From Actinomycetes bacterium (GTDB lineage Bacteria; Actinomycetota; Acidimicrobiia; Spongiisociales; UBA5794): a stretch of 64,000 nucleotides of DNA. The stretch lies in the NCBI GenBank assembly GCA_024638645.1, contig JAHEJX010000003.1, forward strand, positions 1,395-65,394, read 5' to 3'. Shown here piece by piece: positions 43,331 through 62,089 of this stretch (positions within the stretch are counted from its first letter, which is position 1; every line of letters begins with the position of its first letter). The notes under the pieces are model-generated. The model worked only from the letters and a program-made list of their open reading frames with translations. It had not been told where the DNA came from and searched no databases. Both the position numbers and the translations under genes were made by a program.

Positions 43331-43552
43331 TCTTCCTACTTCCCCTTGATTCCTATCGCACCGACCCCCCAAAAACACGGGTCATAGGTCTCTGCGAATC
43401 CTTTTCCTACCTGGATCGAGCGCCCGCGCCCGTCCGACACTCACTGTACAGAACCTGACTTGTTATGGGGGTGGCATAAACCGCGCACAAGGATGGGCTA
43501 GTTACCTGTGCGTATCCGGTATCGCGCATCCGGACCATCGTGGGGTTGCATG

Positions 43553-46608: not shown

Positions 46609-47789
46609 AGCTGGCGATCCTGTCACGGTCCCCGCGTATATACAGCACCCAGCGCCTCAAGACCGCAGCCCAGGAACGAGGCCACTCCGTGCGGGTGCTC
46701 GACACCCTGCGCTTCTCCATCGATCTTGCCGGGGACGAGCCAGATCTGCAATATCGCGGCAAGCAGCTCAGCCACTATGACGCTGTACTGCCCCGGATTG
46801 GAGCATCGATAACGTTCTACGGCATGGCCGTAGTGCGCCAGTTTGAGCAGATGGACGTATACACACCCAATACGTCCAATGGCATTGCAAACTCGAGAGA
46901 CAAGCTTCGAGCGATCCAGATCTTGTCGCGGCACAACATAGGAATCCCGGCGACCACCTTCGTCAGAGATCGCGCCGACGTACTGCCCGCAATCGAGCGG
47001 GTCGGGGGTTCACCCGTTGTGATCAAACTCCTCGAGGGGACGCAGGGCATCGGTGTGATTCTGGCCCCTGACGTGAAGGTGGCGGAGGCGGTGATCGAGA
47101 CGTTGCAGAGCACGCGTCAGAATGTTCTGATCCAGCGATTCGTCGCAGAAAGCAAGGGGCAAGACATTCGAGCTTTCGTCGTTGGTGACAGGGTCGTCGC
47201 CGCGATGAGGCGCAAGGCCTCGGGCGACGAGTTTCGCTCCAATCTGCATCGCGGCGGCACCTCTGAGGTCGTGCACCTCGATCCGGAGTTTGAACGAGTC
47301 GCCGTCCAGTCGGCGCAGATCATGGGACTTCGCGTCGCCGGCGTCGACATGCTCGAAAGCGAGGATGGGCCCTTGGTGATGGAGGTGAACTCTTCCCCGG
47401 GGCTGGAGGGAATAGAGACGGCGACCGACCTCGATATTGCAGGAGCCATTGTCGACTACATCGCGAACCAGGTTGCATTCCCGGAATTGGACATACGGCA
47501 ACGGCTCACGGTCAGTACGGGCTACGGCGTTGCCGAGCTTCAAGTGGGCCAGAAGTCTGATCTCGTCGGTAAAGCAATCGGAGATACCGGTCTGCGGGAG
47601 CGAGACATCACGGTGCTCACGCTGACCCGAGGCACCACTGTCATCCCCAATCCGCGCGGAGTTCGCGAGCTCGAGGTCGACGACAGATTGCTCTGTTTTG
47701 GCAGGCTGGAATCGATGCGCGACCTCGTGCCCGAGCGCAAGCGGCGGCGTGCCCGCCCGAAGATCAAGCCATTGCCTCATGACGACTGA
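46605..47789 (+). CDS. rimK: RimK-family alpha-L-glutamate ligase (ATP-grasp) with a C-terminal TrkA-C/RCK_C-like domain
   Basis: MKLAILSR..R.YST.RL..AA..RGH.V..LD plus ATP-grasp motifs (VVIKLLEGTQGIGV, EVNSSPGLEGIE). The extra ~95 aa (VAELQVGQKSDLVGKAIGDTGLRERDITVLTLTRG..VIPNP...L...D.LL.FG) looks like TrkA-C. Confidence 0.85.
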   Translation: MKLAILSRSPRIYSTQRLKTAAQERGHSVRVLDTLRFSIDLAGDEPDLQYRGKQLSHYDAVLPRIGASITFYGMAVVRQFEQMDVYTPNTSNGIANSRDKLRAIQILSRHNIGIPATTFVRDRADVLPAIERVGGSPVVIKLLEGTQGIGVILAPDVKVAEAVIETLQSTRQNVLIQRFVAESKGQDIRAFVVGDRVVAAMRRKASGDEFRSNLHRGGTSEVVHLDPEFERVAVQSAQIMGLRVAGVDMLESEDGPLVMEVNSSPGLEGIETATDLDIAGAIVDYIANQVAFPELDIRQRLTVSTGYGVAELQVGQKSDLVGKAIGDTGLRERDITVLTLTRGTTVIPNPRGVRELEVDDRLLCFGRLESMRDLVPERKRRRARPKIKPLPHDD

Positions 47790-48726
47790 GTCATTTGCGA
47801 TCGCAGGCGAATCGGTGAAACCGGGCCAACAAGCTCAATTCGAGCTGCCGATTGCGAAGTTGATGAGTGGCACCCCTGTTGCACTTCCTGTGATCGTTGT
47901 ACATGGCAAGCAACCCGGCCCCGTCGTATGGGTCAGTGCCGCCGTTCACGGCGACGAGATCAACGGGGTCGAGATCGTGCGCCGCGTGTTGTCGCAGATT
48001 TCGGCTCGCGAGTTGGCGGGCACCCTGATTGCAGTTCCGGTGGTGAACGTTCACGGATTCAACTCAGGTGATCGTTATCTGCCAGATCGGCGTGACCTCA
48101 ACCGGTCATTTCCAGGGTCGCTGCGCGGCTCGCTTGCCAGCCAGATCGCCCATCTGTTTGTGACGGAAGTCGTCTCGCGATGCAGCGTCGGAATCGATCT
48201 GCACACGGGATCGGACCACAGGATCAACTTGCCACAGATTCGAGCAGACCTCGACGACCCTGAGACGCTGGCGCTAGCCAGGGCATTTGGGCCACCGATC
48301 GCGATTCATTCGGCCACAAGGGACGGATCACTCCGCCAGGTGGCTGCGGACATGGGTACCAGAGTGCTGCTGTTCGAGGGGGGTGAGGCCAACAGGTTCG
48401 ACGAAGCCTCCATCCAGGCCGGCACGGCGGGCGTGCGCAGGGTCATGGCAGCCCGTGGCATGCTGGCCGACGTCGCCGGTCCCCCTGGCGAGTGCGCCCT
48501 ATCGCGCAAGAGTCGCTGGATGCGCGCCACCCGCAGCGGCATTCTCAGCCTCAATGTTGAGAGTGGTGATGGGGTGATTGTCGGTGAGCCGATCGCCGCC
48601 ATTCACGACCCTTTCGGAAAACGACTCGGCACGGTGAAGTCTCGTGCGCAGGGCATTGTCATCGGCCACACCCAGCACCCTCTGGTCAACAAGGGCGACG
48701 CCGTAGCGCACGTAGCCGAGGTCTGA
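47779..48726 (+). CDS. succinylglutamate desuccinylase/aspartoacylase (AstE-AspA, M14-like) family protein
   Basis: Start set at MTTESF, overlapping rimK by 11 nt. Shows LPVIVVHG..PGP.VW.SAAVHGDEING.E and NRSFPGS motifs. Confidence 0.8.
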   Translation: MTTESFAIAGESVKPGQQAQFELPIAKLMSGTPVALPVIVVHGKQPGPVVWVSAAVHGDEINGVEIVRRVLSQISARELAGTLIAVPVVNVHGFNSGDRYLPDRRDLNRSFPGSLRGSLASQIAHLFVTEVVSRCSVGIDLHTGSDHRINLPQIRADLDDPETLALARAFGPPIAIHSATRDGSLRQVAADMGTRVLLFEGGEANRFDEASIQAGTAGVRRVMAARGMLADVAGPPGECALSRKSRWMRATRSGILSLNVESGDGVIVGEPIAAIHDPFGKRLGTVKSRAQGIVIGHTQHPLVNKGDAVAHVAEV

Positions 48727-49273: not shown

Positions 49274-49672
49274 ATGAAATGGTGGGTACTCGAGCTCATC
49301 ACCGTCGGGGTGCTCGTCCTGGCGCTTGCGCTGCTGGGGCCTTTGATCAAACGCTTCGGCCGCAGCTACGCAGCCGACGTGTTCCGCGCCAACCCGCGCA
49401 CCGGCAAGAGCTACATCATTTTGATGGACGTCGCCTACTACTTGATCTTCACGGCGTACATCCTCTTCACGACAGTCTTCGAGCAGCAGTCGGGCTGGGC
49501 CGACACGGTGAACGCGGACCAGATGCGCTCCGAGACGGTGCGTATCGGGGGCATGTTGCTCATCATGGGAATCCTCCACGGCGCCAACGTGCTCAGCCTT
49601 CCGATCATCGGTCGGTTGCTGGGGCTCGGACGCCGCCTCGATGAGGATGCTCGCGAACCGCGCGCAGCCTGA
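49274..49672 (+). CDS. small three-TM membrane protein, paralogous to the C-terminal module of 50256-51008
   Basis: LGPLIKRFGRSY..D.F...P..G......DVAYYLIFTAYI ... GMLLIMGILHGA...LPIIG aligns with VGPAIRRFGEHY..D.F...P..G......DLAYYLIFGAFI ... GLLLLMGLLHVA...LPIAG. Confidence 0.5.
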   Translation: MKWWVLELITVGVLVLALALLGPLIKRFGRSYAADVFRANPRTGKSYIILMDVAYYLIFTAYILFTTVFEQQSGWADTVNADQMRSETVRIGGMLLIMGILHGANVLSLPIIGRLLGLGRRLDEDAREPRAA

Positions 49673-50259
49673 TGCTCGCTCTGCCGCTGCGTCCGGCGCG
49701 GCTCCGATTCGGCCTATGGCTCATGACAACCGTCGATCGTGTGGTTGCCGCTGTCGTCTCGATCGATCGTGATGCGCTCGTCGCCGACCTGTTTGCCGCG
49801 GAAGGAGCTCGCCTGGTGCGAATGGCCCGCCTTTTCACGGACGACCGGAACGCGGCAGAGGACCTGGTGCAGGAGGCATTCATCCGGCTGCACCGGGCCG
49901 CCCATCGCATCGATGACCCGGCCAAAGCTGCCCCGTACCTGCGGTCCATCGTGATCAACCTGGCTCGCGATCACAATCGGCGTGGGCTCATGTCGCTGCG
50001 CCATCAAGAGGCTTTGCCGGCGGGCAGTACACCCGAAGCTCCGGAGGATGAGCTCGAACTCGACGAGCGCAGGCGGCGCGTGGTTGCCGAGGTGCGCGAG
50101 CTGCCGCCGCGCCAGCGCGACTGCCTCCTCCTGCGCTTCTACCTGGAGCTGACGGAGGTCGAAACGGCCGAGGTTCTCGGAATCTCCAAGAACACTGTCA
50201 AGACGCACTTGCGGCGCGGCATGGACACGTTACGCCGGCGTCTAGAGGGGGAGACATGA
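49672..50259 (+). CDS. ECF-type RNA polymerase sigma factor
   Basis: Region 2 (AEDLVQEAFIRLHR, YLRSIVINLARDHNRR) and region 4 (LPPRQRDCLLLRFYLELTEVETAEVLGISKNTVKTHLRRG) are both present. An alternative start lies at 49723. Confidence 0.85.
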   Translation: MLALPLRPARLRFGLWLMTTVDRVVAAVVSIDRDALVADLFAAEGARLVRMARLFTDDRNAAEDLVQEAFIRLHRAAHRIDDPAKAAPYLRSIVINLARDHNRRGLMSLRHQEALPAGSTPEAPEDELELDERRRRVVAEVRELPPRQRDCLLLRFYLELTEVETAEVLGISKNTVKTHLRRGMDTLRRRLEGET

Positions 50260-51008
50260 CGATCGAACAACTCGTTGGCGACGCCCTTCGCGCAGCCGAT
50301 ACTTATGAGCCGAGCCCAGATTTGTTCGCCAAAGTGCAGCGGTCCATTGACGATGACGCTGCCCACCGGAGGCGTGTCCGGCGTGCTCTGACCTGGGTCG
50401 GCATCGGGTTGATGGTGACGGCGGTCTATTTGCTGGCGACGGTGGACGTTGTTGATGGCACTGTGTCCATGTCGTTCACAGCGTTGGAGGTATTGACCAC
50501 CGTCGTGATGATTCTGATCGTTGTCTTGGTGGGCCCTGCGATTCGCCGGTTCGGCGAGCACTACGAAAAGGACGCCTTCGGGAGCGATCCGGAGGTCGGA
50601 GCCCACGTCTTGAGATTGCTCGACCTCGCCTACTACCTGATCTTCGGCGCCTTCATCGTGATCACCCTTGTTTTCGACCCGGCACTCGTGTTTGAAGAAC
50701 GGTTCGCCGTGTTACGCGACGGTTGGTTGGCAGTGTGGATACGCGGTGAGCTGGTGAGGGTCGCCGGGTTGCTGTTGCTCATGGGATTACTGCATGTCGC
50801 GCTGCTTGTGGCGCTCCCAATCGCGGGCCTGGTACACAGTGCCAATGAGCGCCGGCGGCGCATCATGGCGGGCGCCGTTTCCGGCGATGCGCTGGCCGAT
50901 CGTGTCGATCGAACCATCACCGTCGCGGCCTGGGTGGTGGCACTGCTTGTGACAGTCGTACTCCTTTTCGCGGTGTTCTTGCTGGTGGTTGGAGGGATCT
51001 CAGGATGA
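50256..51008 (+). CDS. putative anti-sigma factor (short cytoplasmic N-domain plus multi-TM module)
   Basis: It overlaps the sigma gene by 4 nt, in the position typical of a cognate anti-sigma. It has an N-terminal soluble ~50 aa followed by TM helices. Confidence 0.5.
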   Translation: MTIEQLVGDALRAADTYEPSPDLFAKVQRSIDDDAAHRRRVRRALTWVGIGLMVTAVYLLATVDVVDGTVSMSFTALEVLTTVVMILIVVLVGPAIRRFGEHYEKDAFGSDPEVGAHVLRLLDLAYYLIFGAFIVITLVFDPALVFEERFAVLRDGWLAVWIRGELVRVAGLLLLMGLLHVALLVALPIAGLVHSANERRRRIMAGAVSGDALADRVDRTITVAAWVVALLVTVVLLFAVFLLVVGGISG

Positions 51009-51796
51009 CTACCGCAGCGCCGCCGCGAGCGCCGAGCGGTTCCGCGCCGATCGTGCGTGAGATCGCACGTGGCGGCCTGGCAGGGCTGCTGACGGGCATC
51101 GTCATGGGCGGCGGGGGCGGAAGACTGGCGATGCGCGTCTCTTCGCTCCTCGATCCTGCCGCAAGGGGAGCCCGCACGGAAGCAGGTGCAACCGTCGGCG
51201 AGTTCACGCTGGAAGGCACGGTCAGCTTTGTCATCTTCGTGGGACTTTTTTCGGGAATCGCCCTTGCGGTCATCTGGGTGATTGCACAGCGCTGGCTCCC
51301 GAGTCGGGGCGTGGCACGCTACGCGGCTGCCTCGCTGCTCGGCATCGCAATGGGGGCGCGGTTTGCCATCGAGGGCCGCAACATCGATTTCCTCATTCTG
51401 GATCCCAAGGCTGCCCAGGTGGCGGTCTTCGTCGTCCTGGCGGCGGCCACTGGGGCTGTCGTCGTTGGTGTCGATCGTTGGCTCGAGCGTCGCCTCCCGG
51501 CACCGTCCGATGCGGCTCTGCAGTGGTACCGGGCGATCACTGTGGTTGGAGTCCTCCTTGCCATCCCCGCAATCCTGGGCCTCTTCAATTCCAATGAGTG
51601 CTCATGCGTCAGTCCTCCGCGACTACCTGGGGCGTTTCTGGTTGTGCTCGGGGGCACCTCGGTCTCCGCCTGGTTGCATCAGAAGAAGGGCTCAGTGGCG
51701 CCGGGATGGTTGCGCCGTGGCGGGCAGTTATCGCTGGCAGCAACGATCGTTGCTGGTTTCCTGCACCTCGCAGGCGAGGTGGCTTACTTCATCTGA
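51005..51796 (+). CDS. hypothetical polytopic membrane protein
   Basis: It overlaps the previous gene by 4 nt and has multiple hydrophobic helices. I recognise no family. Confidence 0.45.
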   Translation: MTTAAPPRAPSGSAPIVREIARGGLAGLLTGIVMGGGGGRLAMRVSSLLDPAARGARTEAGATVGEFTLEGTVSFVIFVGLFSGIALAVIWVIAQRWLPSRGVARYAAASLLGIAMGARFAIEGRNIDFLILDPKAAQVAVFVVLAAATGAVVVGVDRWLERRLPAPSDAALQWYRAITVVGVLLAIPAILGLFNSNECSCVSPPRLPGAFLVVLGGTSVSAWLHQKKGSVAPGWLRRGGQLSLAATIVAGFLHLAGEVAYFI

Positions 51797-51826: not shown

Positions 51827-52252
51827 TCAGTCCGGCAGGACGTAGCTTGTCGTTGCATGCCCGACCAGCCGATCGGGTGCGCCGTCCATATAGAGGTCCG
51901 CCGTGCCATAGGCCACTCGCCGCCCCACCTTGAGCACCTCGGCCTTGCAGATCACGTCGCCGCCGATCGCAGGGCGGAGGAAGTTGTACTTCAGCTCGTT
52001 TGTCACGGCAAGCGGCACGATGCCGATCTTGGTGAACAGCGCCCAGTAGAAGGTTGCGTCTGCCATCGCCATCAGGATTGGGCCGGCTATGAAGTCGACT
52101 GGCCGGGTCCAACGTGCCTCATGAGTGAACCGGCTCACCGCAACGCCGTCGCCTATCGACTCGAGATGGATGTTCATCTCGGCGCAGAACGGCACCATCT
52201 CAGCGTTGAACTCCCGGATCTGTTCCAGAGTGACTGGAAGGGCGCTATCCAT
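51827..52252 (-). CDS. PaaI/hotdog-fold thioesterase family protein
   Basis: Trimmed to MDSALPVT (141 aa). The layout G...G.....A.......A...........T..L...FLRPA..G.....A.V...GRR is typical of PaaI-like thioesterases. Confidence 0.7.
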   Translation of the reverse strand: MDSALPVTLEQIREFNAEMVPFCAEMNIHLESIGDGVAVSRFTHEARWTRPVDFIAGPILMAMADATFYWALFTKIGIVPLAVTNELKYNFLRPAIGGDVICKAEVLKVGRRVAYGTADLYMDGAPDRLVGHATTSYVLPD

Positions 52253-52361
52253 GGCGTCGACTCTATGCCACCTGCCGCACGATGGCGGCCAAGTGCGAGC
52301 CGCCTCGCAGCTTTTACCAGTCGGGGCTATCGTCACCGTGTCCTACCTGAGGCGGTTCCCC

Positions 52362-53510
52362 TTGCGAATTCTGATCCTTGGCGGCGACGGGTATCTGGGA
52401 TGGCCAACCGCCATGCACCTGTCGGCTGCCGGTCATGACGTCGCCGTGGTCGACGACTTCACACGGCGCAGCATGCACCAGGAACGCGGCACGTCGAGCC
52501 TCACGCCGATTGCTCCGCTGCCAGACCGTGTCTCAGCCTGGCGTGAGATAACCGGTCGAGACGTCGAGATGCACGTCGCTGACATCACCGACTACGCCTC
52601 TCTGCGTTCGATCTTTGAGCAAACTCGACCGGAAGGAATTGTTCACTACGGCGAGATCCCGTCCGCCCCCTATTCGATGATCGACAGAGATCACGCCGCC
52701 TACGTGCAACAGAACAACGTCATCGGCACTCTCAACGTGTTGTGGGCAATGCGCGAGGTGGCTCCCGATTCACATCTGGTGAAGTTGGGCACGATGGGTG
52801 AATACGGAACTCCCAACATCGACATCGAAGAGGGCTACATCGAAATCGCGCACAAGGGCCGCTCTGACACGATGCTGTTCCCCAAGCAGCCCGGCAGCTT
52901 CTATCACCTGACCAAGGTGCACGATTCGAACAACATCCACTTCGCCTGCCGCATGTGGGGGTTGCGGGCTACCGACCTCAACCAGGGCGTCGTTTACGGC
53001 ATGCACACGGACGAGACGCAATTGGACGACCGGTTGCTGACCCGCTTCGACTACGACGAGCTGTTCGGAACCGCGCTGAACCGATTCGCTGTGCAGGCGG
53101 TGCTCGGCTATCCGTTGACCGTCTACGGCGCAGGACATCAGACACGAGGATTCCTTGACATCCGGGACACCATGCAGTGCATCGCCCTGGCGCTTGCCAA
53201 CCCAGCGCAATCCGGCGAGATGCGTGTGTACAACCAGTTCACGGAGACCTTCAGCGTCATGGAGCTCGCCGAGGTGGTGAAGGAAGCCGCGGTGCATCTC
53301 GGATACGAAGTCGAGATCGACCATCTCGACAATCCGAGAATCGAGGCAGAAGAGCACTACTTCAATCCGGTTCACACCAAGCTGCTAGATCTTGGCCTCA
53401 AGCCGCACCTGCTGTCAGAAACCCTTGTCGAATCTATGATCTCGGGCGTTGCCGACTATGCAGATCGCATCCAGATCGACTCCATTGCTCCAAAGACGAA
53501 GTGGCGGTGA
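52362..53510 (+). CDS. sqdB: UDP-sulfoquinovose synthase
   Basis: It is near-colinear with my recollection of plant SQD1/bacterial SqdB: GGDGYLGW, SLTPIA, SAPYSMID, NNVIGTLNVL, HLVKLGTMGEYGTPNIDIEEGY, FPKQPGSFYHLTKVHDS, ATDLNQGVVYG, FGTALNRF.VQA, LTVYG.G.QTRGFLDIRDT, NPR.EAEEHY. The TTG at 52362 (MRILILGG) is preferred as start, with GAGG upstream. Confidence 0.9.
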   Translation: MRILILGGDGYLGWPTAMHLSAAGHDVAVVDDFTRRSMHQERGTSSLTPIAPLPDRVSAWREITGRDVEMHVADITDYASLRSIFEQTRPEGIVHYGEIPSAPYSMIDRDHAAYVQQNNVIGTLNVLWAMREVAPDSHLVKLGTMGEYGTPNIDIEEGYIEIAHKGRSDTMLFPKQPGSFYHLTKVHDSNNIHFACRMWGLRATDLNQGVVYGMHTDETQLDDRLLTRFDYDELFGTALNRFAVQAVLGYPLTVYGAGHQTRGFLDIRDTMQCIALALANPAQSGEMRVYNQFTETFSVMELAEVVKEAAVHLGYEVEIDHLDNPRIEAEEHYFNPVHTKLLDLGLKPHLLSETLVESMISGVADYADRIQIDSIAPKTKWR

Positions 53511-54433
53511 GCGGGCGCGTCCTTATCACGGGAGGTTGCGGCTTTGTTGGTGTCAACCTCGGTCGTTTGCTGATAGATCGTGGCTGGACGGTCGTTGCAT
53601 ACGACTCTCTCGTCGCGGGCTCTCGGTCTGACGCCGAACGCGTCGGCATGGCGGTCGTCGAAGGTGACGTCCGGGACGCCGAGACGTTGGCTGCAGCCGC
53701 CGGACATGCCGATTTGGTCGTTCATCTAGCGGCGCACACCAGCGTCATCGATTCGATCGAGCAGCCCGCTCTGGACCTCGATGTGAATGTGACCGGCACC
53801 CTCAATGCATTGGTGGCGGCTCGCGACGCCGGCGCACGCCACTTCGTCTTCGCTTCCTCGAACGCGCCTCTTGGCTCTGCCCCAGCCCCCTCCCGTGAGG
53901 ATGTGCTGCCACAGCCGCTCTCGCCGTACGGCGCTTCCAAGCTTGCGGGGGAGGCGCTTTGTTCGGCGTTCCGTGCGTCCTACGGGTTGCCCGCGACCGT
54001 TCTCCGGTTCTCGAATGTGTACGGGCCATACAGCTATCACAAAGGCAGCGTCGTCGCACTGTTCATGCGGCGGCTGCTGCGGGGGGATGGTCTCACCATC
54101 TACGGCGACGGCGAGCAAACAAGAGACTTCGTTCACGTGACCGACCTATGTCAGGGTATCTTCGCCGCTCTCGGTTTGGATAGTGCAGGCGATACCTACC
54201 ACCTCGCCTCGGGCACCGAAACGACGGTTAACTCTTTGGCATCCGCAATGTTCGAGCTGTTCCCGGACCATCCCGGGCAGATCGAATACGTGCAGGCTCG
54301 GCCCGGCGAAGTACTGCGCAGCTATTCCGATATTTCGAAGGCTCGAGCCGATCTGCGGTTCACGCCGACAATCGACCTGCCATCGGGCCTTGCCGAAACC
54401 AAGCTCTGGTTCTTGGAGGAGTACGGCGAATGA
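53507..54433 (+). CDS. NAD-dependent epimerase/dehydratase (extended SDR, UDP-hexose 4-epimerase-like)
   Basis: The GTG start overlaps the sqdB stop (GTGA). Shows TGGCGFVG, the YGASK catalytic dyad, and DGEQTRDFVHV. Confidence 0.85.
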   Translation: MSGRVLITGGCGFVGVNLGRLLIDRGWTVVAYDSLVAGSRSDAERVGMAVVEGDVRDAETLAAAAGHADLVVHLAAHTSVIDSIEQPALDLDVNVTGTLNALVAARDAGARHFVFASSNAPLGSAPAPSREDVLPQPLSPYGASKLAGEALCSAFRASYGLPATVLRFSNVYGPYSYHKGSVVALFMRRLLRGDGLTIYGDGEQTRDFVHVTDLCQGIFAALGLDSAGDTYHLASGTETTVNSLASAMFELFPDHPGQIEYVQARPGEVLRSYSDISKARADLRFTPTIDLPSGLAETKLWFLEEYGE

Positions 54434-55458
54434 CCTTGCGACTCGCCGGGCTCGTAGTCGGCTTACTCTTGGCCGGTATTGGGATCCTCGGTAGAAGGCG
54501 CGGCAACTTCAGTCGCGGCGACCTACTCCTTTGGCTCTCGTTCGGCCTTGCCATTTCTCTGCTGTCTGTGGTTCCAGGCACCGCAGACGCACTACTCGAC
54601 GTGTTGCGTCTAGAGAACCGCTTGTTCGCCGTTCTCGTAGTCAGCACCGGAGCTCTAACCATCTTGACGCTGCGTCAGCGGACCCGATTTCATCGGCTCG
54701 AGGCCAAGTTCGGCAATCTGGTTCGGAATCTGGCCGTGCGTGACTTCGGCGTTGAGGCGACCTCGGGCAACGGTCAGCCGACCGTTGGGATCGTCATCGC
54801 GGCATTCAATGAAGAACAGGCCATCGGGGGCGTTCTCAACGAGCTGCCAGAGACGATTGGCGACTTCGCTGTTGACGCGATCGTCGTCGTCGACGGCGGT
54901 GAGGACGACACCGAAGGTGTTGTGCGGCGTGCTGGGTACTCGGTTGCGACGCATCCGGTGAACCGGGGACAAGGAGACGCGCTCCGGACAGGCTTCGCGA
55001 TTGCACTGCGGCGCGGGGATGAGATCATCGTGACGATGGATGCTGACGGTCAGCATGCCCCTGAAGAGCTGCCGCTGCTGATCGATCCGATCGCCGCGGA
55101 CGAGGCCGACTACGTGCAAGGTTCACGATTCCTCGGCGAATATGACGACGCGGGTGGTGCCCGTCATTTCGGGATCCGTATGTTCACAAAGCTGATCAAC
55201 CTGCTGGCCGGAACCGAGATCACCGATTGCACCAACGGATACAGGGCAATCAAAGCAAAACAGCTTGCCCGTCTTCGTCTCGAAGAGGATCGATTCTCGG
55301 CGGCCGAGATCATCATGGAAGGGGCGGCAAAGAAGCTCCGGATGAAAGAGGTTCCCGTCCACATCCGTACGCGCTCGCACGGAGTGAGCCGCAAGCCACC
55401 GCGACTTGGCTATCCGCTCGGCTTCCTGCGGGTAGTCGTCAGCGTCTGGCTCAGGTAA
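54430..55458 (+). CDS. family-2 glycosyltransferase (polyprenyl-phosphate sugar synthase-like) with an N-terminal multi-TM DUF2304-like extension
   Basis: The GT-A core is VGIVIAAFNEE..I, VVDGGEDDT, TMDADGQH (DxD) and QGSRF. The first ~105 aa form 3-4 TM helices followed by RQRTRFHRLEAKFGNLVRNLA, resembling the small DUF2304 proteins usually encoded next to such GT2s. Confidence 0.8.
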   Translation: MTLRLAGLVVGLLLAGIGILGRRRGNFSRGDLLLWLSFGLAISLLSVVPGTADALLDVLRLENRLFAVLVVSTGALTILTLRQRTRFHRLEAKFGNLVRNLAVRDFGVEATSGNGQPTVGIVIAAFNEEQAIGGVLNELPETIGDFAVDAIVVVDGGEDDTEGVVRRAGYSVATHPVNRGQGDALRTGFAIALRRGDEIIVTMDADGQHAPEELPLLIDPIAADEADYVQGSRFLGEYDDAGGARHFGIRMFTKLINLLAGTEITDCTNGYRAIKAKQLARLRLEEDRFSAAEIIMEGAAKKLRMKEVPVHIRTRSHGVSRKPPRLGYPLGFLRVVVSVWLR

Positions 55459-55462
55459 GCGC

Positions 55463-56395
55463 GTGAGGCGATCGCTGCAACTGCTGAACCTGGCGGTGGC
55501 TGCCGGCCTGATCGCTGTCGTCGTAGCCGTATACCGGCCGTGGGAAGTGTGGAGCTTCGAGATCAGCTTTTTCGGTGCCCTCGCCACGGCGCTGGTGTTG
55601 GAAGTCTTGCTTGTCCTTGTTTGGGCGAACCGCCACTCTTTGGTTTTGCGCGAGGCGGGAGCCGCCATCCCGGCTCGGAAACTGCTCTGGCTGGTGACCT
55701 TCTCGGGCACGGCCAACAGCCTCACTCCGGCGGCCACGGGTGAAGTTGCCCGAGCGTGGCTGCTGCACCGAAACTTCGGCGTTGCCGTGGAACAGTCTGC
55801 CGGCGCCATCCTGTTCGAACGGGTCTTCATGTTCGGGTTCATGGCGCTGACCGCGCTCTCCGCCGGATTGATCGCTTCTGGAGGAACCGGCTGGCTCAGT
55901 GCCCTCGGTGGCGGTGCAGTCATCGTATACGTGGTCGGCACGCCCTCGCTCGTCGGCCTGTTGGCACCACGGCAACCGACGAGTGATGAGAGCAGCGTGC
56001 GGAACCGGATTCGCTCGGTGCTCGCCAGAGCGTCCGATGTCTGGTCGAATCGGCGCGCCACGCTGCTCACGGCCCTGTGGAGTGCGGCTGCATTCGCCAT
56101 CATGGGCACGATCTTCAAGATCGCCGCAGATAGGGTCGGTCTCGAACTCGACGCCATGACTGTGTGGGCGCTGGTCGGTGGAGCCACCGCGGCCGGCGTG
56201 TTGTCGGCCCTCCCTTTCGGTCTCGGTGCCGCCGAATTGTCCGCAGTTGGGATCGGCGCCCTGATCGGCCTGGACACCCAGGCTGTGGCCGCAGCCTTCG
56301 TCATGTATCGGATCTTGTTCACACTCCCGATCGCCGTGGCCGGCAGCGTGGCTTATGGACGCCTCATGCTGTCCGACGGGTCGAGCTCAACGTGA
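55463..56395 (+). CDS. polytopic membrane protein, flippase-like (UPF0104 / LPG-synthase-TM type, tentative)
   Basis: 310 aa with about 8 TM helices, positioned directly after the GT2. The family call rests on architecture and context, not on a strong motif. Confidence 0.45.
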   Translation: MRRSLQLLNLAVAAGLIAVVVAVYRPWEVWSFEISFFGALATALVLEVLLVLVWANRHSLVLREAGAAIPARKLLWLVTFSGTANSLTPAATGEVARAWLLHRNFGVAVEQSAGAILFERVFMFGFMALTALSAGLIASGGTGWLSALGGGAVIVYVVGTPSLVGLLAPRQPTSDESSVRNRIRSVLARASDVWSNRRATLLTALWSAAAFAIMGTIFKIAADRVGLELDAMTVWALVGGATAAGVLSALPFGLGAAELSAVGIGALIGLDTQAVAAAFVMYRILFTLPIAVAGSVAYGRLMLSDGSSST

Positions 56396-58352
56396 CCGTC
56401 CACCGGCAGTCGTGGCGGGCACGGTGAGCGTGCATCTCGTCTTGGGCTTGGTCTTCCTTGTCTCACTGTTCGTTGCGCCGTCAATTGCGATCTACGCGTA
56501 TCTGGTGAGCCGGCCCAACCGGGCGGCGCATCGTGAAGGCGATCTGCTCGCCGCGGTCGTGCTCGTGGCGGCAACGGTGGTTCTGGGGTTACTGGCGCTC
56601 GCCCGCCTAGGCGCCATCTCGTTGGTGTCGGTTTGGCTCATTGCCGCCGGGGCTCTTGTGGGGAGCGTCTTTGTTCTCAGGCGACAGGCCGTCGAATCAG
56701 CTCCTTTGTCGACGATTTCTCAGATGCGGACGGGACTGCTCTTTGCGGGAGGCGTCGTGATCATTGCGGCGCCCGCTTTGTGGACGATCTTCGGTCGGCT
56801 TGACAGCTTGAATCGAATCTCGGCCTGGTTCTATTGGCAGCAGATTCAACAGTTCATATCCGTCGGTGGCTTCTCCGGCTCGAGTTTCGAATGGGGCGTT
56901 GTCACCGCGGCCTTCGAGCACCACCTCGCCTTCACTGCGCTCGGAGCTGCCACAGCCGAGGCCTCCGGTGCGGCCTCTTCTCTCGCCGGCGCCCAGGCGA
57001 TCCGAATCGTTGCAGGCCTGGCCATGCCCGGTTCCGCCTATCTCGCCGTGCGTTCGTGGCGAGGCGGGCGCTGGGCCGCCGTGGGTGCTGCGCTCCTGGT
57101 TGCGGCGATAAGCGTCACCGCCACCAAACCGATCGGGTTCGTGCCTGAGGGCCTTGGGCACATCCTGGCGATGCTGACTGTGGGGCTCGTCTATCCAGCA
57201 CTCATCGAACGGTCGCGAGCTGCACAAGCTGCGCTCCTGGTCGGCATGGTTGCCACGACCCAAGTGCACGGAATCGCAGCGACGTTCCTATACCTAGTCG
57301 TCGCTGCCGCTCTTCTCGCTTTTGTGGCACTGCCGGACACGGGCCGGAGTAGCAGAGTGAGACTTGTGTTCGCGTTGGGAGCTCTCTCAATAATCGGCGC
57401 TCTACTCGTCGGTCAGACCCTGGGGGCCAGGGCGTCTGATGCTGCCATCCTCAGCGATGCGGCAGAGCTCGACGCCGACGGGTCGGACCCCACTTGGGAG
57501 TTCGTTCTGTGGGCCAACACCCGAGGCAGGCTGAGCGAAGCCGAGCTCGCAACGACTCCGCCCGACAACGGCGAGCTGCTCCGCAACTCGTTCACCCGTG
57601 TCTTCATCAGGGCGGACGGTTGGTGGATAGAAGCGGGGTTTTTCCTGGCGCTCGCCGCGGCCGGCGTCTACGGCGCGGCTCGGCACGGCAATCGGTCGCT
57701 ATTCCCTCTGTTGACGGCGCTGCTCGCCGTCCTTTTTGTCGTGATTGCAGGGGCCGCACTCTCGTTGCCTTATGACACGTACGTCCCTCGCCGAACCGGG
57801 CTGCAGCGACTTGTTCAACTGTGGCCAATCTCTGCCGCCGTGCTTGGCCCGCTGCTCGTTGATCGGCTCCGCAAGAAGGAACCCCTGACCGCGCTGCTGA
57901 CGGCTGCGGTCTTGCTGTGGCTGGTGGCTGCGGGCGGCGTCACCAGCTTGAACCGCAACCATGCCACCCGCGAGCAGGTGCGCGAGCTGGCAGCCCTGCC
58001 CGTTCCGGATGGCGCCCTGATTCTGACCAACGGGTGGACCCAGGGGGCCATCGCCGGAATGACCTCGGGGGGCATCGGTCTCCTTGACGGGCAGGCGCCC
58101 TACCTCAATCCCGAGCTGTTGCCACTCAGCCTCGAAATGCTCGCCGATATACGTGAGTTCTTCATCAGGCCGAGAGGCAACTCCGACATTCCGGGGAAGT
58201 ATGGAGCGGACTTCGTGTTGGTGGCGCAGCGCTCGAATGCGTTTGGCGGAGCCAGGGTCTATAGCGCAAGCGACGATCGCCTCGACCTGACCAGGACGCT
58301 GCAGGCGCTATATCGCAGCGACAACTACACCCTCTATTCCGTCACGGATTGA
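56355..58352 (+). CDS. large polytopic membrane protein (GT-C-like glycosyltransferase candidate)
   Basis: 665 aa with more than 12 TM helices and a soluble C-terminal ~130 aa. The start is uncertain: an ATG at 56355 overlaps the previous gene by 41 nt, and in-frame GTGs occur at 56412 and 56424. Confidence 0.5.
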   Translation: MDASCCPTGRAQRDRPPAVVAGTVSVHLVLGLVFLVSLFVAPSIAIYAYLVSRPNRAAHREGDLLAAVVLVAATVVLGLLALARLGAISLVSVWLIAAGALVGSVFVLRRQAVESAPLSTISQMRTGLLFAGGVVIIAAPALWTIFGRLDSLNRISAWFYWQQIQQFISVGGFSGSSFEWGVVTAAFEHHLAFTALGAATAEASGAASSLAGAQAIRIVAGLAMPGSAYLAVRSWRGGRWAAVGAALLVAAISVTATKPIGFVPEGLGHILAMLTVGLVYPALIERSRAAQAALLVGMVATTQVHGIAATFLYLVVAAALLAFVALPDTGRSSRVRLVFALGALSIIGALLVGQTLGARASDAAILSDAAELDADGSDPTWEFVLWANTRGRLSEAELATTPPDNGELLRNSFTRVFIRADGWWIEAGFFLALAAAGVYGAARHGNRSLFPLLTALLAVLFVVIAGAALSLPYDTYVPRRTGLQRLVQLWPISAAVLGPLLVDRLRKKEPLTALLTAAVLLWLVAAGGVTSLNRNHATREQVRELAALPVPDGALILTNGWTQGAIAGMTSGGIGLLDGQAPYLNPELLPLSLEMLADIREFFIRPRGNSDIPGKYGADFVLVAQRSNAFGGARVYSASDDRLDLTRTLQALYRSDNYTLYSVTD

Positions 58353-59074
58353 TCAGTCTGCCGAGCTATTGTTACGCACCTTTCCGCCCTCCATCACACA
58401 GGACCACCATGACCAATCGGAAACAGGCGCGGGTTCGGCAGCTGAGCCGCGCCTCACTGGTGATCAACTTTCTGACCTTCCCGTTTCGAGCGCTATTCAT
58501 TCGCCAGAGCGACGCCCGCCTGATGACTTCGCTTCGCAGCGAGAGGATGCACTACTCGGCACAGCACGTTCGTGGCGAGACTCTCGACATTGGGTGCGGC
58601 CCTCACAACGTGTTCGTTGATCAGTGGCTCGCCGGCAACGGGAAGGGCGTGGATGTGCATCTGTATGACGGCTTAGAGGCCTCCCACATCGCAGATATGA
58701 CGGACCTGCCACTTTCAGATTCCGCTTTCGACACGGTGACGATGATCGCGACCATCAACCACATACCTGCTCCAGAACGCGAACAGCAGCTGGCCGAGGC
58801 GTTTCGGGTGCTGCGATCCGGCGGCAACATCGTGGTGACTCAACCCAATCCAGTCGCCGGGTACCTCGTGCACAAACTCGTGCACTTCTACTCGGACCTC
58901 GGTACCCACGACAGCATGGATCACGAGCGGGGCATGGAGGATGAAGAGGACCTGTACATGCGCGACCGCCAAATCCGGGCTTTGCTCACAGGCGCAGGCT
59001 TCACGAACCTGCGCAAAACCTATTTCTGGTCCCAGTGGGGCCTCAACCATCTGATCAGCGCAGACAAGGCATGA
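58349..59074 (+). CDS. class I SAM-dependent methyltransferase
   Basis: Motif I is TLDIGCGPHN, and the post-I/II region is AFDTVTMIATINHI ... LRSGGNIVV. The TTG start overlaps the previous stop; an alternative ATG lies at 58409. Confidence 0.75.
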   Translation: MISLPSYCYAPFRPPSHRTTMTNRKQARVRQLSRASLVINFLTFPFRALFIRQSDARLMTSLRSERMHYSAQHVRGETLDIGCGPHNVFVDQWLAGNGKGVDVHLYDGLEASHIADMTDLPLSDSAFDTVTMIATINHIPAPEREQQLAEAFRVLRSGGNIVVTQPNPVAGYLVHKLVHFYSDLGTHDSMDHERGMEDEEDLYMRDRQIRALLTGAGFTNLRKTYFWSQWGLNHLISADKA

Positions 59075-59138
59075 CTGCGGACACCAGCGCTCTCCCAGGC
59101 GGATCGGGCACCTGTTGCGTGGCTAGTCTCGCCGCACA

Positions 59139-60950
59139 GTGACCGATTTCATTACCGGGCTCCTGGCGCTCGCCGCCCTCTATTGGTTGCCTGGAGCAGT
59201 CTTTCTGCGTCGCGCGCAGATTGATCTGCCGAGCCGTCTCGTAGGTTCTGTCGTGGTTTCCTATCCAGCTGTGACCGCTCTCACGGTTCTACTCGGAGCG
59301 GCCGGTGTGCTCTCTCAGCTCACGCTGCTGCTCGTTCCGGTGGTTCTCGTCGGAGCTGCTGCCGCGTTCCCGCTTGGCGCCGAAGTGCTCGATGGGCAGC
59401 AGGCCGACGGTCTGAAGGCTCCGCTGTGGGCCGCCGCCGCCGTTGGTGGGCTGGCGATGGTCCAGGCGCTGCGCCCAAGGTTGTATCGGCTCTTCGACGC
59501 CATGACGACGTGGGCTCCGTGGTCTCGAGAGATCGCCGATTCGGGTGACCTCGCACCGGCATTCATTCAGACATCTGTGGAGGGATTCCCCCCTTCCGTT
59601 GCTCTCATTGCGGGTACGGGATCGCTCCTCACCGGTGGATATGTCGAGACGCACACCTTCCTCGTCCACCCGCTCTTCACCGGGCTCACTTTGGTGACGG
59701 TGGTGCTGCTTGGCGGGTACTTCGCCGGGCGCAGCGGAGGTTGGATTGCACTGCTCGTTGTAGCCGCCACACCCTTACTGGAGCGCGGGATGATGTTCCA
59801 TGACGACCTCGTCGTGAGTTTTTTCACGTCGGCAGCCGTGCTGCTGGCAATTCGAGCAACCAGACCTGCCGGCTGGGCGCTGGCGGGAGCAGCCGCCGGC
59901 GCGGCACTCGCCGTCAAACACCTCGGCGTCGTCGCCGTCTTGCTTGGTGCCGTGGTGCTCTTCACGAGGCGTCCGTCGTGGCAGAGCTGGCTGGCCGCGG
60001 CGGCGGCCTGGCTGGTGGGCCTTCCCTGGTATCTCTGGAACGTCGCCCGTTTCGGCAACCCGGTCTATCCCATGTTCTCCGGGTTCTTCGGTGAGTCGCC
60101 CGAGGTTGTCAGGGTTGTGACGGCGAGAGACGCCAACTTGCAAGCCGTCGGGCGGGGCGCGCTCAGCGAGATCGGACTTCTTGCCCTTGCCGCCGTACTG
60201 ACGGGGGTCGTAGCGGCATTTCTGCGAGCCAAGCGGGAGCGGAATCCCATAATGCTCAGATTCAGTAGTTCCCTGGCGGCAGCCGTTGCCCTGTACCTGG
60301 TGGTCTGGGAGACATCCGGATACGCCACGCGTCATGTGTTGATAGTGCTGCCCGCTGTCGCGGCACTTGCTGGATACGGCTTGGGCGGCCAGTCACGCGA
60401 CACCGATCCATTTTGGCGAAGACATCTTGCGCCTCTGGTTGGGATCGCTGTACTCGCCGTATTCACGGTGTCGAGCATATTGGTTGATGTCGCCGGCGAC
60501 GACGAGCCCGGCGAGGCGTTGCAGACCGGCGTATACACGCTGCTGGCCGGCAAATCCGGACTCGAGGAGATCGTCTCTCCTCCAACTGAGTTGTCGGAGA
60601 TGTACGGGAACTCAGGTGTGGCCTGGGAACTGCTCACAAACTCTGACCCTGAACCGCTCGTGCTCTCCGTCGACGGACGCACGTACTACTACCCCCAACA
60701 GACCTTGGTCGGCCTCGACGTCCGCGCCCTTGCCATATTCGACGGCGCCAATCCCGTATCGCGACACGCCGCAGCTATTGAGGCCGGCGTCGGTTACGTG
60801 ATCGACAACCGCTTACTTCGCTCCCGGCGGTCCGACGACCTGCTGGCTGCGAACGCCTTTTGGAGGGATGTGCGAAGGAGGCCCCTGCTGTACGAGGAGA
60901 TCTTCGCAGGGGGCAGCATCGTCCTATACCGTGTCCTTCCGCCCAACTAG
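59139..60950 (+). CDS. large polytopic membrane protein (ArnT/PMT-like GT-C candidate)
   Basis: 603 aa with about 12 TM helices in the first 400 aa, then a soluble C-terminal domain. The call rests on architecture only. Confidence 0.5.
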   Translation: MTDFITGLLALAALYWLPGAVFLRRAQIDLPSRLVGSVVVSYPAVTALTVLLGAAGVLSQLTLLLVPVVLVGAAAAFPLGAEVLDGQQADGLKAPLWAAAAVGGLAMVQALRPRLYRLFDAMTTWAPWSREIADSGDLAPAFIQTSVEGFPPSVALIAGTGSLLTGGYVETHTFLVHPLFTGLTLVTVVLLGGYFAGRSGGWIALLVVAATPLLERGMMFHDDLVVSFFTSAAVLLAIRATRPAGWALAGAAAGAALAVKHLGVVAVLLGAVVLFTRRPSWQSWLAAAAAWLVGLPWYLWNVARFGNPVYPMFSGFFGESPEVVRVVTARDANLQAVGRGALSEIGLLALAAVLTGVVAAFLRAKRERNPIMLRFSSSLAAAVALYLVVWETSGYATRHVLIVLPAVAALAGYGLGGQSRDTDPFWRRHLAPLVGIAVLAVFTVSSILVDVAGDDEPGEALQTGVYTLLAGKSGLEEIVSPPTELSEMYGNSGVAWELLTNSDPEPLVLSVDGRTYYYPQQTLVGLDVRALAIFDGANPVSRHAAAIEAGVGYVIDNRLLRSRRSDDLLAANAFWRDVRRRPLLYEEIFAGGSIVLYRVLPPN

Positions 60951-60999
60951 TGGCGGTTACGGCATCGGCGCCAGCGGGGAACCGGAGATTCTGACAACT

Positions 61000-61596
61000 A
61001 TGACAGGTGAGCAACGTGCTGCGGCAGATGGATTCCCGTCCGCCGGCTGGATCTTCCTCGGGATCTTCATAGTTGCGTTCTATGGTCTCGTAGCGTACGC
61101 CGGCCAGGACAGCATCGCCGCCGGGCTTCTGATTGCGGGATTCGCATCGCTCCTAGTGCTCGGGGCGCTCGCACTGTGGCAACGCTCTCAGGAGAAACAC
61201 CCGGTGCCGGCAGCTGAATACCTAGCCGTGGTGTGGCTGCTGTCATACGTAGCTTTGGGCACACTCGATGCCGTTGTCGACGGGCAGGCTCCGTCTTGGG
61301 ACTGGTTGGTGCTGGCACCTCCCGTGAGCTTCGTCCCGCCACTGCTGCGGCGGCTGCTTGGGGACGACGGAGATCCCCGCGGCAGGGCGCGCACCGCGAC
61401 GTACTTCGCCCACCAGGCGCTCGGCATCCTGTTCTGTGGGCTCGGTGTGCTCTTCATCATCTCGGTGCTGCTGATCATCGCGGCGCCGATCCCGCTGGTA
61501 CCGGGAATCATGCATCTGCGGGCGGGATACCTCTATCGCCGGCAGCGTAACCCGCCGCCCGAAAAGGACCCTCGCCGCGGCTTCATGGACTCCTAG
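61000..61596 (+). CDS. hypothetical membrane protein
   Basis: Trimmed to MTGEQRAAADGF. It has 5-6 TM helices and I recognise no family. Confidence 0.4.
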   Translation: MTGEQRAAADGFPSAGWIFLGIFIVAFYGLVAYAGQDSIAAGLLIAGFASLLVLGALALWQRSQEKHPVPAAEYLAVVWLLSYVALGTLDAVVDGQAPSWDWLVLAPPVSFVPPLLRRLLGDDGDPRGRARTATYFAHQALGILFCGLGVLFIISVLLIIAAPIPLVPGIMHLRAGYLYRRQRNPPPEKDPRRGFMDS

Positions 61597-61723: not shown

Positions 61724-62089
61724 GTGCAGGATATTACGCCTCTATTGCGTACGGCAACGTTGAAAGAGCTACTGATTGAGCTGTTCTTCCTCTCTGACAA
61801 GCCGCGAACCCTCTCAGATTTGGCGAGGGCCATCGATGTGGATCAGACGACCGTAATGAGAGAGGTCAACCGCCTTCTCGAGACCGGAGTTGTGGTCGAG
61901 GAACGGGTCGGAAGGTCCCGAACCATCGCCATCGACCCCTCGAGTCCCATCGCCGGGCCACTACGGCGCCTCGTTCGGCTGGCCCATGAGCCCCCGGAAG
62001 CCGCGTCAGGACGTACCGAAGGGTTCAGCCCGATGCACGCCGAGCGTGCCGAGCGGCGACCTCTGCCCTCCTCCCGGAGGAGGAACTAG
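61724..62089 (+). CDS. winged-helix transcriptional regulator (ArsR/MarR-like)
   Basis: RTLSDLARAIDVDQTTVMREVNRLLETGVVVEERVGRSR is an HTH plus wing. It has a GTG start, and its stop abuts the rpiB ATG. Confidence 0.6.
   Translation: MQDITPLLRTATLKELLIELFFLSDKPRTLSDLARAIDVDQTTVMREVNRLLETGVVVEERVGRSRTIAIDPSSPIAGPLRRLVRLAHEPPEAASGRTEGFSPMHAERAERRPLPSSRRRN

Follow-up and report, generated by a model that had tools for sequence, protein, structure and literature searches.

An sqdB-headed gene cluster of an Acidimicrobiia bacterium as a candidate pathway for lipid-carrier-mediated glycosylation with sulfoquinovose

A 64,000-nucleotide stretch of DNA from an Actinomycetes bacterium of the class Acidimicrobiia (assembly GCA_024638645.1, contig JAHEJX010000003.1, positions 1,395 to 65,394; hereafter, the window) carries, at positions 52362-61596, a run of eight genes headed by sqdB, the gene for uridine diphosphate (UDP)-sulfoquinovose synthase. 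The sqdB gene is followed by genes for a short-chain dehydrogenase/reductase (SDR) of the extended type, a membrane-anchored family 2 glycosyltransferase (GT2), a flippase-like polytopic protein, the large polytopic protein Mem665, an S-adenosylmethionine (SAM)-dependent methyltransferase, a second large polytopic protein, Mem603, and a small membrane protein. The plus strand carries all eight, and neighboring genes overlap or are no more than ~64 nucleotides apart. The sqdB and SDR genes share a GTGA start/stop overlap (53507-53510), the SDR and GT2 genes share an ATGA start/stop overlap (54430-54433), and a gap of 4 nucleotides separates the GT2 gene from that of the flippase-like protein; at the other junctions, the genes overlap or stand up to ~64 nucleotides apart, varying with the choice of start codon. 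An earlier inspection of the DNA made without database searches (the sequence-only reading) had described tightly overlapping genes at this locus, and the coordinates of all eight genes and their junctions agree with that description.

The product of sqdB (52362..53510; 382 residues from a TTG start at 52362, with an alternative GTG at 52338) aligns over its full length with Arabidopsis SQD1 (Protein Data Bank (PDB) entry 1QRR; phmmer E 5.7e-158, residues 2-382). The catalytic Thr, Tyr and Lys residues of UDP-sulfoquinovose synthase have been named (PMC4388408), and in the phmmer alignment the equivalents of SQD1 Thr145, Tyr182, His183 and Lys186 are kept within the stretches GTMGEYG and FYHLTKVHD. 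That the protein is a genuine UDP-sulfoquinovose synthase is thereby strongly supported by homology, as the sequence-only reading had held. In the classical pathway to the lipid sulfoquinovosyldiacylglycerol (SQDG), sqdB is accompanied by a family 4 (GT4) or family 8 (GT8) glycosyltransferase gene; the operon has neither, and no SqdX-like GT4 was found in the 64 kb. Pfam detected no GT4 or GT8 domain among the operon proteins; a tblastn search of the 64-kb window with the sqdB-adjacent GT4 of Alicyclobacillus returned no SqdX-like match; and the top 25 Pfam families listed for the other long open reading frames (ORFs) of the window include neither GT4 nor GT8. The same reading had remarked that no SqdX or SqdD glycosyltransferase follows sqdB, and these searches bear it out.

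What accompanies sqdB instead is a GT2 (54430..55458; 342 residues) of two parts. The N-terminal DUF2304/GacJ-like domain (46.8 bits against a cut-off of 25.5; residues 3-104) holds three transmembrane (TM)-like segments, and is followed by a catalytic GT-A domain at approximately residues 117-321 (PF00535, Glycos_transf_2, 78.6 bits). Proteins of the DUF2304 family, GacJ and Rv3632, are small membrane proteins that bind and strongly activate GacI, an undecaprenyl-phosphate N-acetylglucosamine (GlcNAc) synthase, and PpgS, a polyprenyl-phosphate N-acetylgalactosamine (GalNAc) synthase; GacI and GacJ also occur naturally as fusions (bioRxiv 10.1101/180810). The best NCBIfam matches of the GT2 were PpgS (98.6 bits, cut-off 370), AglJ (91.4 bits, cut-off 325), the haloarchaeal dolichyl-phosphate hexose transferase and ArnC (38.3 bits, cut-off 529), and its PDB matches were ArnC, DPMS and GpgS. 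The segment TMDADGQHAPEE, which contains the DxD and the DADxQ motif, pairs with DADLQNPPEE of ArnC; the residues DADGQHAPEE thus line up as a DADxQxxPEE motif. A soluble enzyme of the GpgS type, the top PDB match (3CKJ, 2e-7), was considered and rejected: the PpgS model matched at 3e-28 against 3e-9 for GpgS, and the protein is fused to DUF2304. Judged by these matches, the enzyme is related to PpgS, AglJ and ArnC but is none of them, and we predict that it is a polyprenyl-phosphate sulfoquinovose (or sulfoquinovose derivative) synthase. The membrane anchor and the polyprenyl-phosphate-sugar synthase type had both been recognized from the sequence, and the three TM-like segments and the best family matches are in accord.

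Comparative genomics furnishes the strongest evidence that sqdB and this GT2 act together. Two sets of loci were compared: 80 loci from species-representative genomes sampled by the GT2, and 80 loci sampled by SqdB, with ~11 contigs in common. In the former, an sqdB homolog of full length and 44% identity or more lies within 10 kb in 53 of the 80 loci and is frameshifted in two more; where at least 5 kb is present on both sides of the GT2, the count is 34 of 43. The two genes are no more than 2.5 kb apart in 45 loci and no more than 300 bp apart in 23, and are often overlapping or near-abutting. Approached from the other side, 56 of the 80 SqdB-sampled loci have a DUF2304-GT2 homolog within 7 kb of sqdB. 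The lineages with the pairing, as deposited, include Acidimicrobiia, Nocardioidaceae, Gaiellales and Solirubrobacterales/Thermoleophilia on the actinomycetotal side, and further Anaerolineales, Chloroflexia, Desulfobacterales, strain NaphS2 (L035), Planctomycetaceae, Myxococcota, Ectothiorhodospiraceae, Legionellaceae, Magnetococcales and Bacillota. The linkage is independent of which gene is used to sample the loci and extends across many phyla, which is the outcome of the comparative survey that the sequence-only reading had proposed as a check.

This linkage bears on the possibility that the adjacency is functionally unrelated, with SqdB serving SQDG synthesis through an SqdX or SqdD encoded elsewhere, and the GT2 and large proteins using another UDP-sugar (UDP-glucose, or UDP-galactose from a GalE-like SDR). 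The search for sqdX covered 64 kb of the genome, the best solved relative of the SDR is a UDP-glucose 4-epimerase, and some relatives of the GT2, for instance those in haloarchaeal and certain Desulfobacterota loci, lack an sqdB within 10 kb. Against this, the pairing holds under both samplings, in many phyla and often with overlapping or near-abutting genes, and a close SqdX-like GT4 was seen in the sampled sqdB loci only in Alicyclobacillus, where sqdB is followed by the GT4 in the classical SQDG layout (L156). We give an unrelated adjacency very little credence. Approximately 24 of the 80 SqdB-sampled loci, among them loci of Acidobacteriota/Chloroflexi (e.g., L135, L123, L150), have neither a DUF2304-GT2 nor a detectable SqdX-like GT4 beside sqdB.

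The haloarchaeal relatives are full-length homologs, inclusive of the DUF2304 domain, with 41-45% identity; they come from Halorhabdus salina (L012), a Haloarculaceae metagenome-assembled genome (MAG; L027) and Halocatena pleomorpha (L056), and no sqdB was found within 10 kb of any of the three. The S-layer of Haloferax volcanii bears a sulfoquinovose oligosaccharide, the pathway to which is unassigned (PMC9263693); the haloarchaeal GT2s could be candidates for that pathway.

The genes that adjoin homologs of the GT2 are often of GT-C type: PMT_2, TMEM260_N, YfhO or DUF6541/GtrII-like. Such genes occur within the sqdB-GT2 clusters of Acidimicrobiia, Nocardioides, Gaiellales, Chloroflexia and Solirubrobacterales. 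The order is sqdB-PMT_2-SDR-GT2 in two Acidimicrobiia loci (L082, 5276-10023; L004, 6178-10780), a Mem665 homolog follows the GT2 in three sister Acidimicrobiia loci (L003, L005, L006), and Nocardioides has sqdB-SDR-GT2-Mem665. A Chloroflexota locus (L084) has YfhO and TMEM260_N beside the GT2, and in a Solirubrobacterales locus (L117, 2820-8143), two PMT_2 genes precede the GT2 gene in an arrangement divergent from sqdB (GT2<-PMT_2<-PMT_2). A metagenomic locus (L083, 4455-6418) has a gene for 3'-phosphoadenosine-5'-phosphosulfate (PAPS) reductase directly after sqdB, which suggests a dedicated supply of sulfite for UDP-sulfoquinovose synthesis; L083 also encodes two additional enzymes each of the SDR and GT2 types, and a membrane enzyme of the sulfatase/phosphodiesterase family.

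The window's own candidates for this class are Mem665 (56355..58352; 665 residues from the ATG at 56355, or 642 from the GTG at 56424 in the public protein set) and Mem603 (59139..60950; 603 residues). In each, nine or more hydrophobic segments are accompanied by a soluble region of ~100-150 residues at the C-terminus. A word-indexed homolog search returned two relatives for Mem665 and one for Mem603, and the families were built from related loci and an exhaustive search. Mem665 itself matches DUF6541 at E 0.59, whereas members of its family (17 proteins collected from related loci) reach 47.0 and 40.3 bits for DUF6541 (cut-off 29) and 30.0 bits for GtrII of Shigella phage (cut-off 30); GtrII and DUF6541 are families that we take to belong to the GT-C clan. 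The family hidden Markov model found homologs in 27 of the 80 GT2-sampled loci, mostly directly 3' of the GT2. For Mem603, Pfam gave no match, and the sole NCBIfam match was a weak one to LIC_10190 (22.5 bits). An exhaustive phmmer search against 1.84 billion representatives yielded seven close relatives (six full-length, one partial) and ~100 distant matches confined to residues ~150-320 (E 7e-9 to 1e-3). When 69 of the hits were scanned, PMT_2 was present in 52 and PMT in 24, with single hits bearing GT87, DUF2142, Glyco_transf_22 and STT3, all of them GT-C families.

The Mem603 family conserves FDA (D120), FHDD (221-223) and K260. Asp120, situated in the first large loop past the N-terminal TM helices, is shared by all seven members in which the N-terminus is present, and by no fewer than 90% of the 69 aligned sequences; we infer that the loop is extracellular. 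The two families align with one another at 96.8% probability (hhalign, E 3e-10, 573 columns), and by this profile comparison the Mem665 and Mem603 families are homologous over their full lengths. The closest homolog of Mem603 (P0125; L081, 6121-13727) is encoded immediately after a GT2 in the cluster of another sugar, a placement expected of a lipid-linked-sugar transferase. By this neighborhood, the rare Mem603 family also accompanies a GT2 in one other sugar pathway: the L081 cluster includes genes for a DegT aminotransferase, a GFO/IDH/MocA oxidoreductase and a hexapeptide acetyltransferase, as in an acetamido-sugar pathway, and a second Mem603 paralog lies on the opposite strand. Mem665 is a candidate DUF6541/GtrII-like GT-C glycosyltransferase and Mem603 a candidate, distant PMT_2/ArnT-like one; by transitive homology and context, the GT-C assignment of both is well supported, not proven. 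The GT-C architecture that the sequence-only reading had attributed to the two proteins draws indirect support from their relatives (PMT_2, DUF6541, GtrII) and did not gain direct support from Pfam or NCBIfam.

Two GT-C-type genes per sqdB cluster recur, as two PMT_2 genes in Solirubrobacterales and as PMT_2 together with a gene of Mem665 type in Acidimicrobiia (e.g., L003, L005, L006). The pair of large proteins in the window mirrors this pattern, which may point to two acceptors or to transfer in two successive steps.

How the GT2 and the large proteins are related in function is where two further explanations have to be weighed. In the first, the GT2 would itself make a terminal sulfoglycolipid, with β-linked sulfoquinovose attached to diacylglycerol or to a hopanoid, carotenoid or other lipid, to be flipped by the LPG_synthase_TM protein, and the large proteins would have an unrelated role. 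The core pair conserved across phyla is only sqdB and the GT2, the two large proteins lack direct family matches, and pairs of a GT2 with an LPG_synthase_TM protein occur in lipid modification, as with hpnI and hpnL of hopanoids. We nevertheless consider a sulfoglycolipid product unlikely: the GT2 is nearest to polyprenyl- and dolichyl-phosphate sugar synthases and bears a GacJ-type DUF2304 domain, and genes of GT-C families lie inside the sqdB-GT2 clusters of several separate lineages. In the second, sulfoquinovose would be added on the cytoplasmic side from UDP-sulfoquinovose to a lipid-linked oligosaccharide, as proposed for Agl1, and the large proteins would be polymerases, ligases or oligosaccharyltransferases. 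A membrane-bound glycosyltransferase encoded beside agl3 in Sulfolobus is proposed to use UDP-sulfoquinovose as the donor in adding sulfoquinovose to the N-glycan (PMC4388408), and one PMT_2 protein of the Solirubrobacterales locus L117 is also a weak match to STT3. However, Pfam and NCBIfam detected no initiating phosphoglycosyltransferase and no further glycosyltransferases in the operon, and the DUF2304-GT2 type has been characterized only as a monosaccharide-phosphate-polyprenol synthase (bioRxiv 10.1101/180810). A cytoplasmic route of the Agl1 kind is, to us, quite improbable.

The flippase-like protein (55463..56395; 310 residues) exceeds the cut-offs of both PF03706 (LPG_synthase_TM; 98.6 bits, cut-off 33.4) and the TIGR00374 flippase-like domain (70.7 bits, cut-off 43.2), so that its description from the sequence as flippase-like and polytopic was sound. 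It is of MprF type, with at least six TM-like segments; a homolog of 54% identity is encoded in the cluster of the closest relative (L002), and homologs of ~30% identity are present in Chloroflexia loci. We regard it as a candidate flippase for the lipid-linked sugar.

The SDR (53507..54433; 308 residues; PF01370, 189 bits) has the UDP-glucose 4-epimerase 4ZRM (5e-48), WbpP and WbgU as its nearest solved structures, and its relatives in the PDB are UDP-hexose and UDP-N-acetylhexosamine 4-epimerases, with dTDP-glucose dehydratases alongside. Thr-Asp-Glu is the active-site signature of 4,6-dehydratases. Direct reading of the active-site stretch, ASSNAPLG...YGASK, shows this motif to be missing; a 4,6-dehydratase was rejected on that ground, and the enzyme looks like an epimerase, which is what had been proposed for the gene after sqdB. 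It is a candidate UDP-sulfoquinovose 4-epimerase or UDP-glucose/galactose epimerase. Homologs flank sqdB or the GT2 in loci of Acidimicrobiia, Nocardioides, Anaerolineales and Gaiellales, and are absent from the Solirubrobacterales sqdB loci sampled.

The two remaining genes were likewise seen in the earlier inspection as those of a SAM methyltransferase and a further membrane protein. The former (58349..59074; probable start ATG at 58409, giving ~221 residues) matches Pfam Methyltransf_11, 25, 23 and 31 as a generic class I SAM enzyme; its best named NCBIfam match, weak and partial, is MftM, the mycofactocin oligosaccharide methyltransferase. Homologs of 33-38% identity adjoin GT2 relatives in distant lineages (L033, L048, L050, L060), and the enzyme is a candidate sugar O-methyltransferase. 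The latter (60868..61596; 242 residues from the ATG at 60868, or ~198 from the ATG at 61000) has four TM-like segments, no Pfam or NCBIfam match and no homolog among the related loci.

Taken together, a model for the operon emerges, to which we assign a probability of roughly 60%: a three-component, lipid-carrier glycosylation system of the Gtr, GacIJKL, PpgS-Rv3779 or ArnC-ArnT type that would use sulfoquinovose or an epimerized or methylated derivative. SqdB, with strong support, would form UDP-α-sulfoquinovose from UDP-glucose and sulfite, and the second SDR may, speculatively, epimerize the sugar. At the cytoplasmic face, the DUF2304-GT2 would transfer the sulfosugar to polyprenyl phosphate; since GT2 enzymes invert, the expected product of this GT-A enzyme is β-sulfoquinovosyl-phosphopolyprenol, similar to the β-linked GlcNAc of GlcNAc-phosphoundecaprenol. 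The family, the motif, the fusion partner and the conserved synteny all point to this step. The LPG_synthase_TM protein would then move the lipid-linked sugar to the outer leaflet, and the two GT-C-like proteins, also inverting, would place α-linked sulfoquinovose on one or two extracytoplasmic acceptors, among which a cell-wall glycopolymer, a lipoglycan and proteins are possible. The methyltransferase may, again speculatively, O-methylate the sugar. The cell envelope would in this way acquire a sulfonated decoration with a permanent negative charge. Lipid-carrier-mediated extracytoplasmic glycosylation with sulfoquinovose is also what the sequence-only reading had put forward, and the GT2 family, the GT-C relatives and the conserved pairing are in agreement with it.

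Several observations weigh against this model. SqdB scores 492.3 bits against NCBIfam NF041015, under the equivalog cut-off of 575 bits; the alignment runs end to end (1-382 against 1-384), and the shortfall was judged not significant because of the identity of SqdB to SQD1. Every named-family match of the GT2 likewise falls under its equivalog cut-off, as would be expected if its donor sugar differs from those of the named families. Neither Mem665 nor Mem603 has a significant direct match to a GT-C model of Pfam or NCBIfam, profile searches of both families against PDB sequences gave no meaningful match, and AlphaFold2 models of the two proteins, built on 3- and 2-sequence alignments, have a mean predicted local distance difference test (pLDDT) of 38.3 and 35.3, values too low for a fold to be read from them. 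None of the sampled loci showed the methyltransferase, Mem603 or the last membrane protein together with sqdB, and so we regard these three as accessory. Co-transcription of the eight genes is read from gene spacing alone, and an SqdX or SqdD could lie elsewhere in the genome, as the search took in the 64-kb window.

The limits of the operon are as follows. Upstream of sqdB, a 4HBT thioesterase gene (51827-52255) lies on the minus strand; as it is transcribed divergently, sqdB is the first gene of the unit. The divergent intergenic region between the two, read from the sequence at 52256..52361, presumably holds the operon's promoter, and no sigma-70 consensus was found in it. No convincing internal terminator was detected in the eight-gene run, with 12 terminator-like sites against 9.6 ± 2.9 expected from shuffles. 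Downstream of the cluster are a MarR-like gene (61724-62089) and then rpiB and deoC. The GC content is 0.61-0.65 within the cluster, as in the flanks, and the nearest relatives of the cluster proteins are in Acidimicrobiia MAGs; recent horizontal acquisition was considered and set aside, the uniform base composition giving no sign of it.

Some other genes of the window are of note. Approximately 0.5 kb upstream of the cluster, a module on the plus strand consists of a gene for an extracytoplasmic function (ECF) sigma-70 factor (49672-50259) and two overlapping ORFs (50256-51008, with a weak match to the Rv2743c family, and 51005-51796); the three genes (49672-51796) may be a sigma/anti-sigma envelope-stress module. 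On the minus strand, 2235-6092 encodes a 1285-residue protein that combines three Laminin_G_3/concanavalin-like domains with one bacterial Ig domain and a region similar to the receptor-binding part of clostridial neurotoxins, and 42173-43378 encodes a 401-residue protein with nine RTX calcium-binding repeats. The two are likely to be secreted surface proteins, and it is conceivable that they are targets of glycosylation. Three genes at 46072-48726 on the plus strand resemble a poly-glutamate tailing and trimming module: they encode a putative ATP-dependent zinc protease (PF05618), an ATP-grasp ligase of the RimK type that bears a TrkA_C domain, and an enzyme similar to succinylglutamate desuccinylase/aspartoacylase.

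A search of the literature brought up no description of a pathway in bacteria that links sulfoquinovose to a polyprenyl or undecaprenyl carrier, matching the earlier remark that no equivalent bacterial system was known. A 2026 review of sulfoquinovose cycling treats the sugar almost entirely as the head group of phototroph SQDG (PMC13436972), and non-lipid sulfoquinovose has so far been described only in archaea, in the N-glycans of Sulfolobus (PMC4388408) and the S-layer oligosaccharide of Haloferax (PMC9263693). The sqdB genes of non-photosynthetic bacteria were remarked upon in 2015 without explanation (PMC4388408). Extended beyond the window, the balance tips slightly towards a general reading in which many non-photosynthetic bacteria, especially Actinomycetota of soils and sediments (Acidimicrobiia, Thermoleophilia, Nocardioidaceae), along with Chloroflexota and some Desulfobacterota, produce polyprenyl-phosphate-sulfoquinovose and attach sulfoquinovose by GT-C enzymes to cell-wall polymers or surface proteins. 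If true, this would constitute a new class of bacterial envelope modification with a new lipid-linked sugar donor, and would explain those long-noted sqdB genes. A strongly anionic, phosphate-free decoration of the envelope would bear on phosphate limitation, cation binding, and interactions with phages and antimicrobials, and soils would hold an unrecognized, non-phototrophic pool of sulfoquinovose, derived from heterotrophs, for the environmental sulfur cycle.

Among known systems, the classical SQDG operons (sqdB-sqdX of cyanobacteria; sqdBDC of Rhodobacter and Sinorhizobium) share the same SqdB and the same product, UDP-sulfoquinovose, but continue with a retaining GT4 (SqdX/SQD2) or GT8 (SqdD), for which the window operon has no counterpart, to a diacylglycerol lipid. 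The N-glycans of Sulfolobus acidocaldarius, made with Agl1-Agl4 (PMC4388408), and the S-layer of Haloferax volcanii (PMC9263693) resemble the present proposal in that sulfoquinovose resides in an envelope glycoconjugate and not in SQDG. Both are archaeal, and sulfoquinovose is proposed there to pass from UDP-sulfoquinovose to a dolichol-linked oligosaccharide that is transferred by AglB, with no dolichyl-phosphate-sulfoquinovose intermediate known.

A parallel in components is GacI, GacJ, GacK and GacL, which furnish the GlcNAc side chain of the group A carbohydrate in Streptococcus pyogenes and comprise a GT2 sugar-phosphate-undecaprenol synthase, a DUF2304 activator, a flippase and a GT-C enzyme (bioRxiv 10.1101/180810). 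There, the DUF2304 protein is separate, whereas in the window it is fused to the GT2; the donor is UDP-GlcNAc and not UDP-sulfoquinovose, the flippase is Wzx-like and not of the LPG_synthase_TM family, and one GT-C enzyme, acting on polyrhamnose, stands in place of two. A gacL mutant builds up GlcNAc-phosphoundecaprenol. Rv3779 of Mycobacterium tuberculosis is a GT-C transferase that acts after PpgS. With PpgS (Rv3631) and Rv3632, it belongs to the system that places galactosamine on arabinogalactan. The likeness lies in an actinobacterial GT2 polyprenyl-phosphate-sugar synthase with a DUF2304 stimulator (bioRxiv 10.1101/180810). Of the NCBIfam families, PpgS matches the window GT2 best, yet at 98.6 bits against the 370-bit cut-off, and its system differs in using GalNAc and having no sulfosugar synthase. 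The same three-component logic governs O-antigen glucosylation by GtrA, GtrB and a type-specific Gtr protein, the CsbB/GtcA/YfhO systems, and lipid A modification by ArnC and ArnT; GtrII is matched by relatives of Mem665, and ArnC aligns to the window GT2 through the DADxQxxPEE motif. The sugars of these systems are glucose, GlcNAc and 4-amino-4-deoxy-L-arabinose, the flippase is the small GtrA or GtcA, and the window proteins are distant relatives. The logic of the pathway is therefore that of GtrABX, GacIJKL, PpgS/Rv3632/Rv3779, CsbB/GtcA/YfhO and ArnC/ArnT, and the new element is the sugar.

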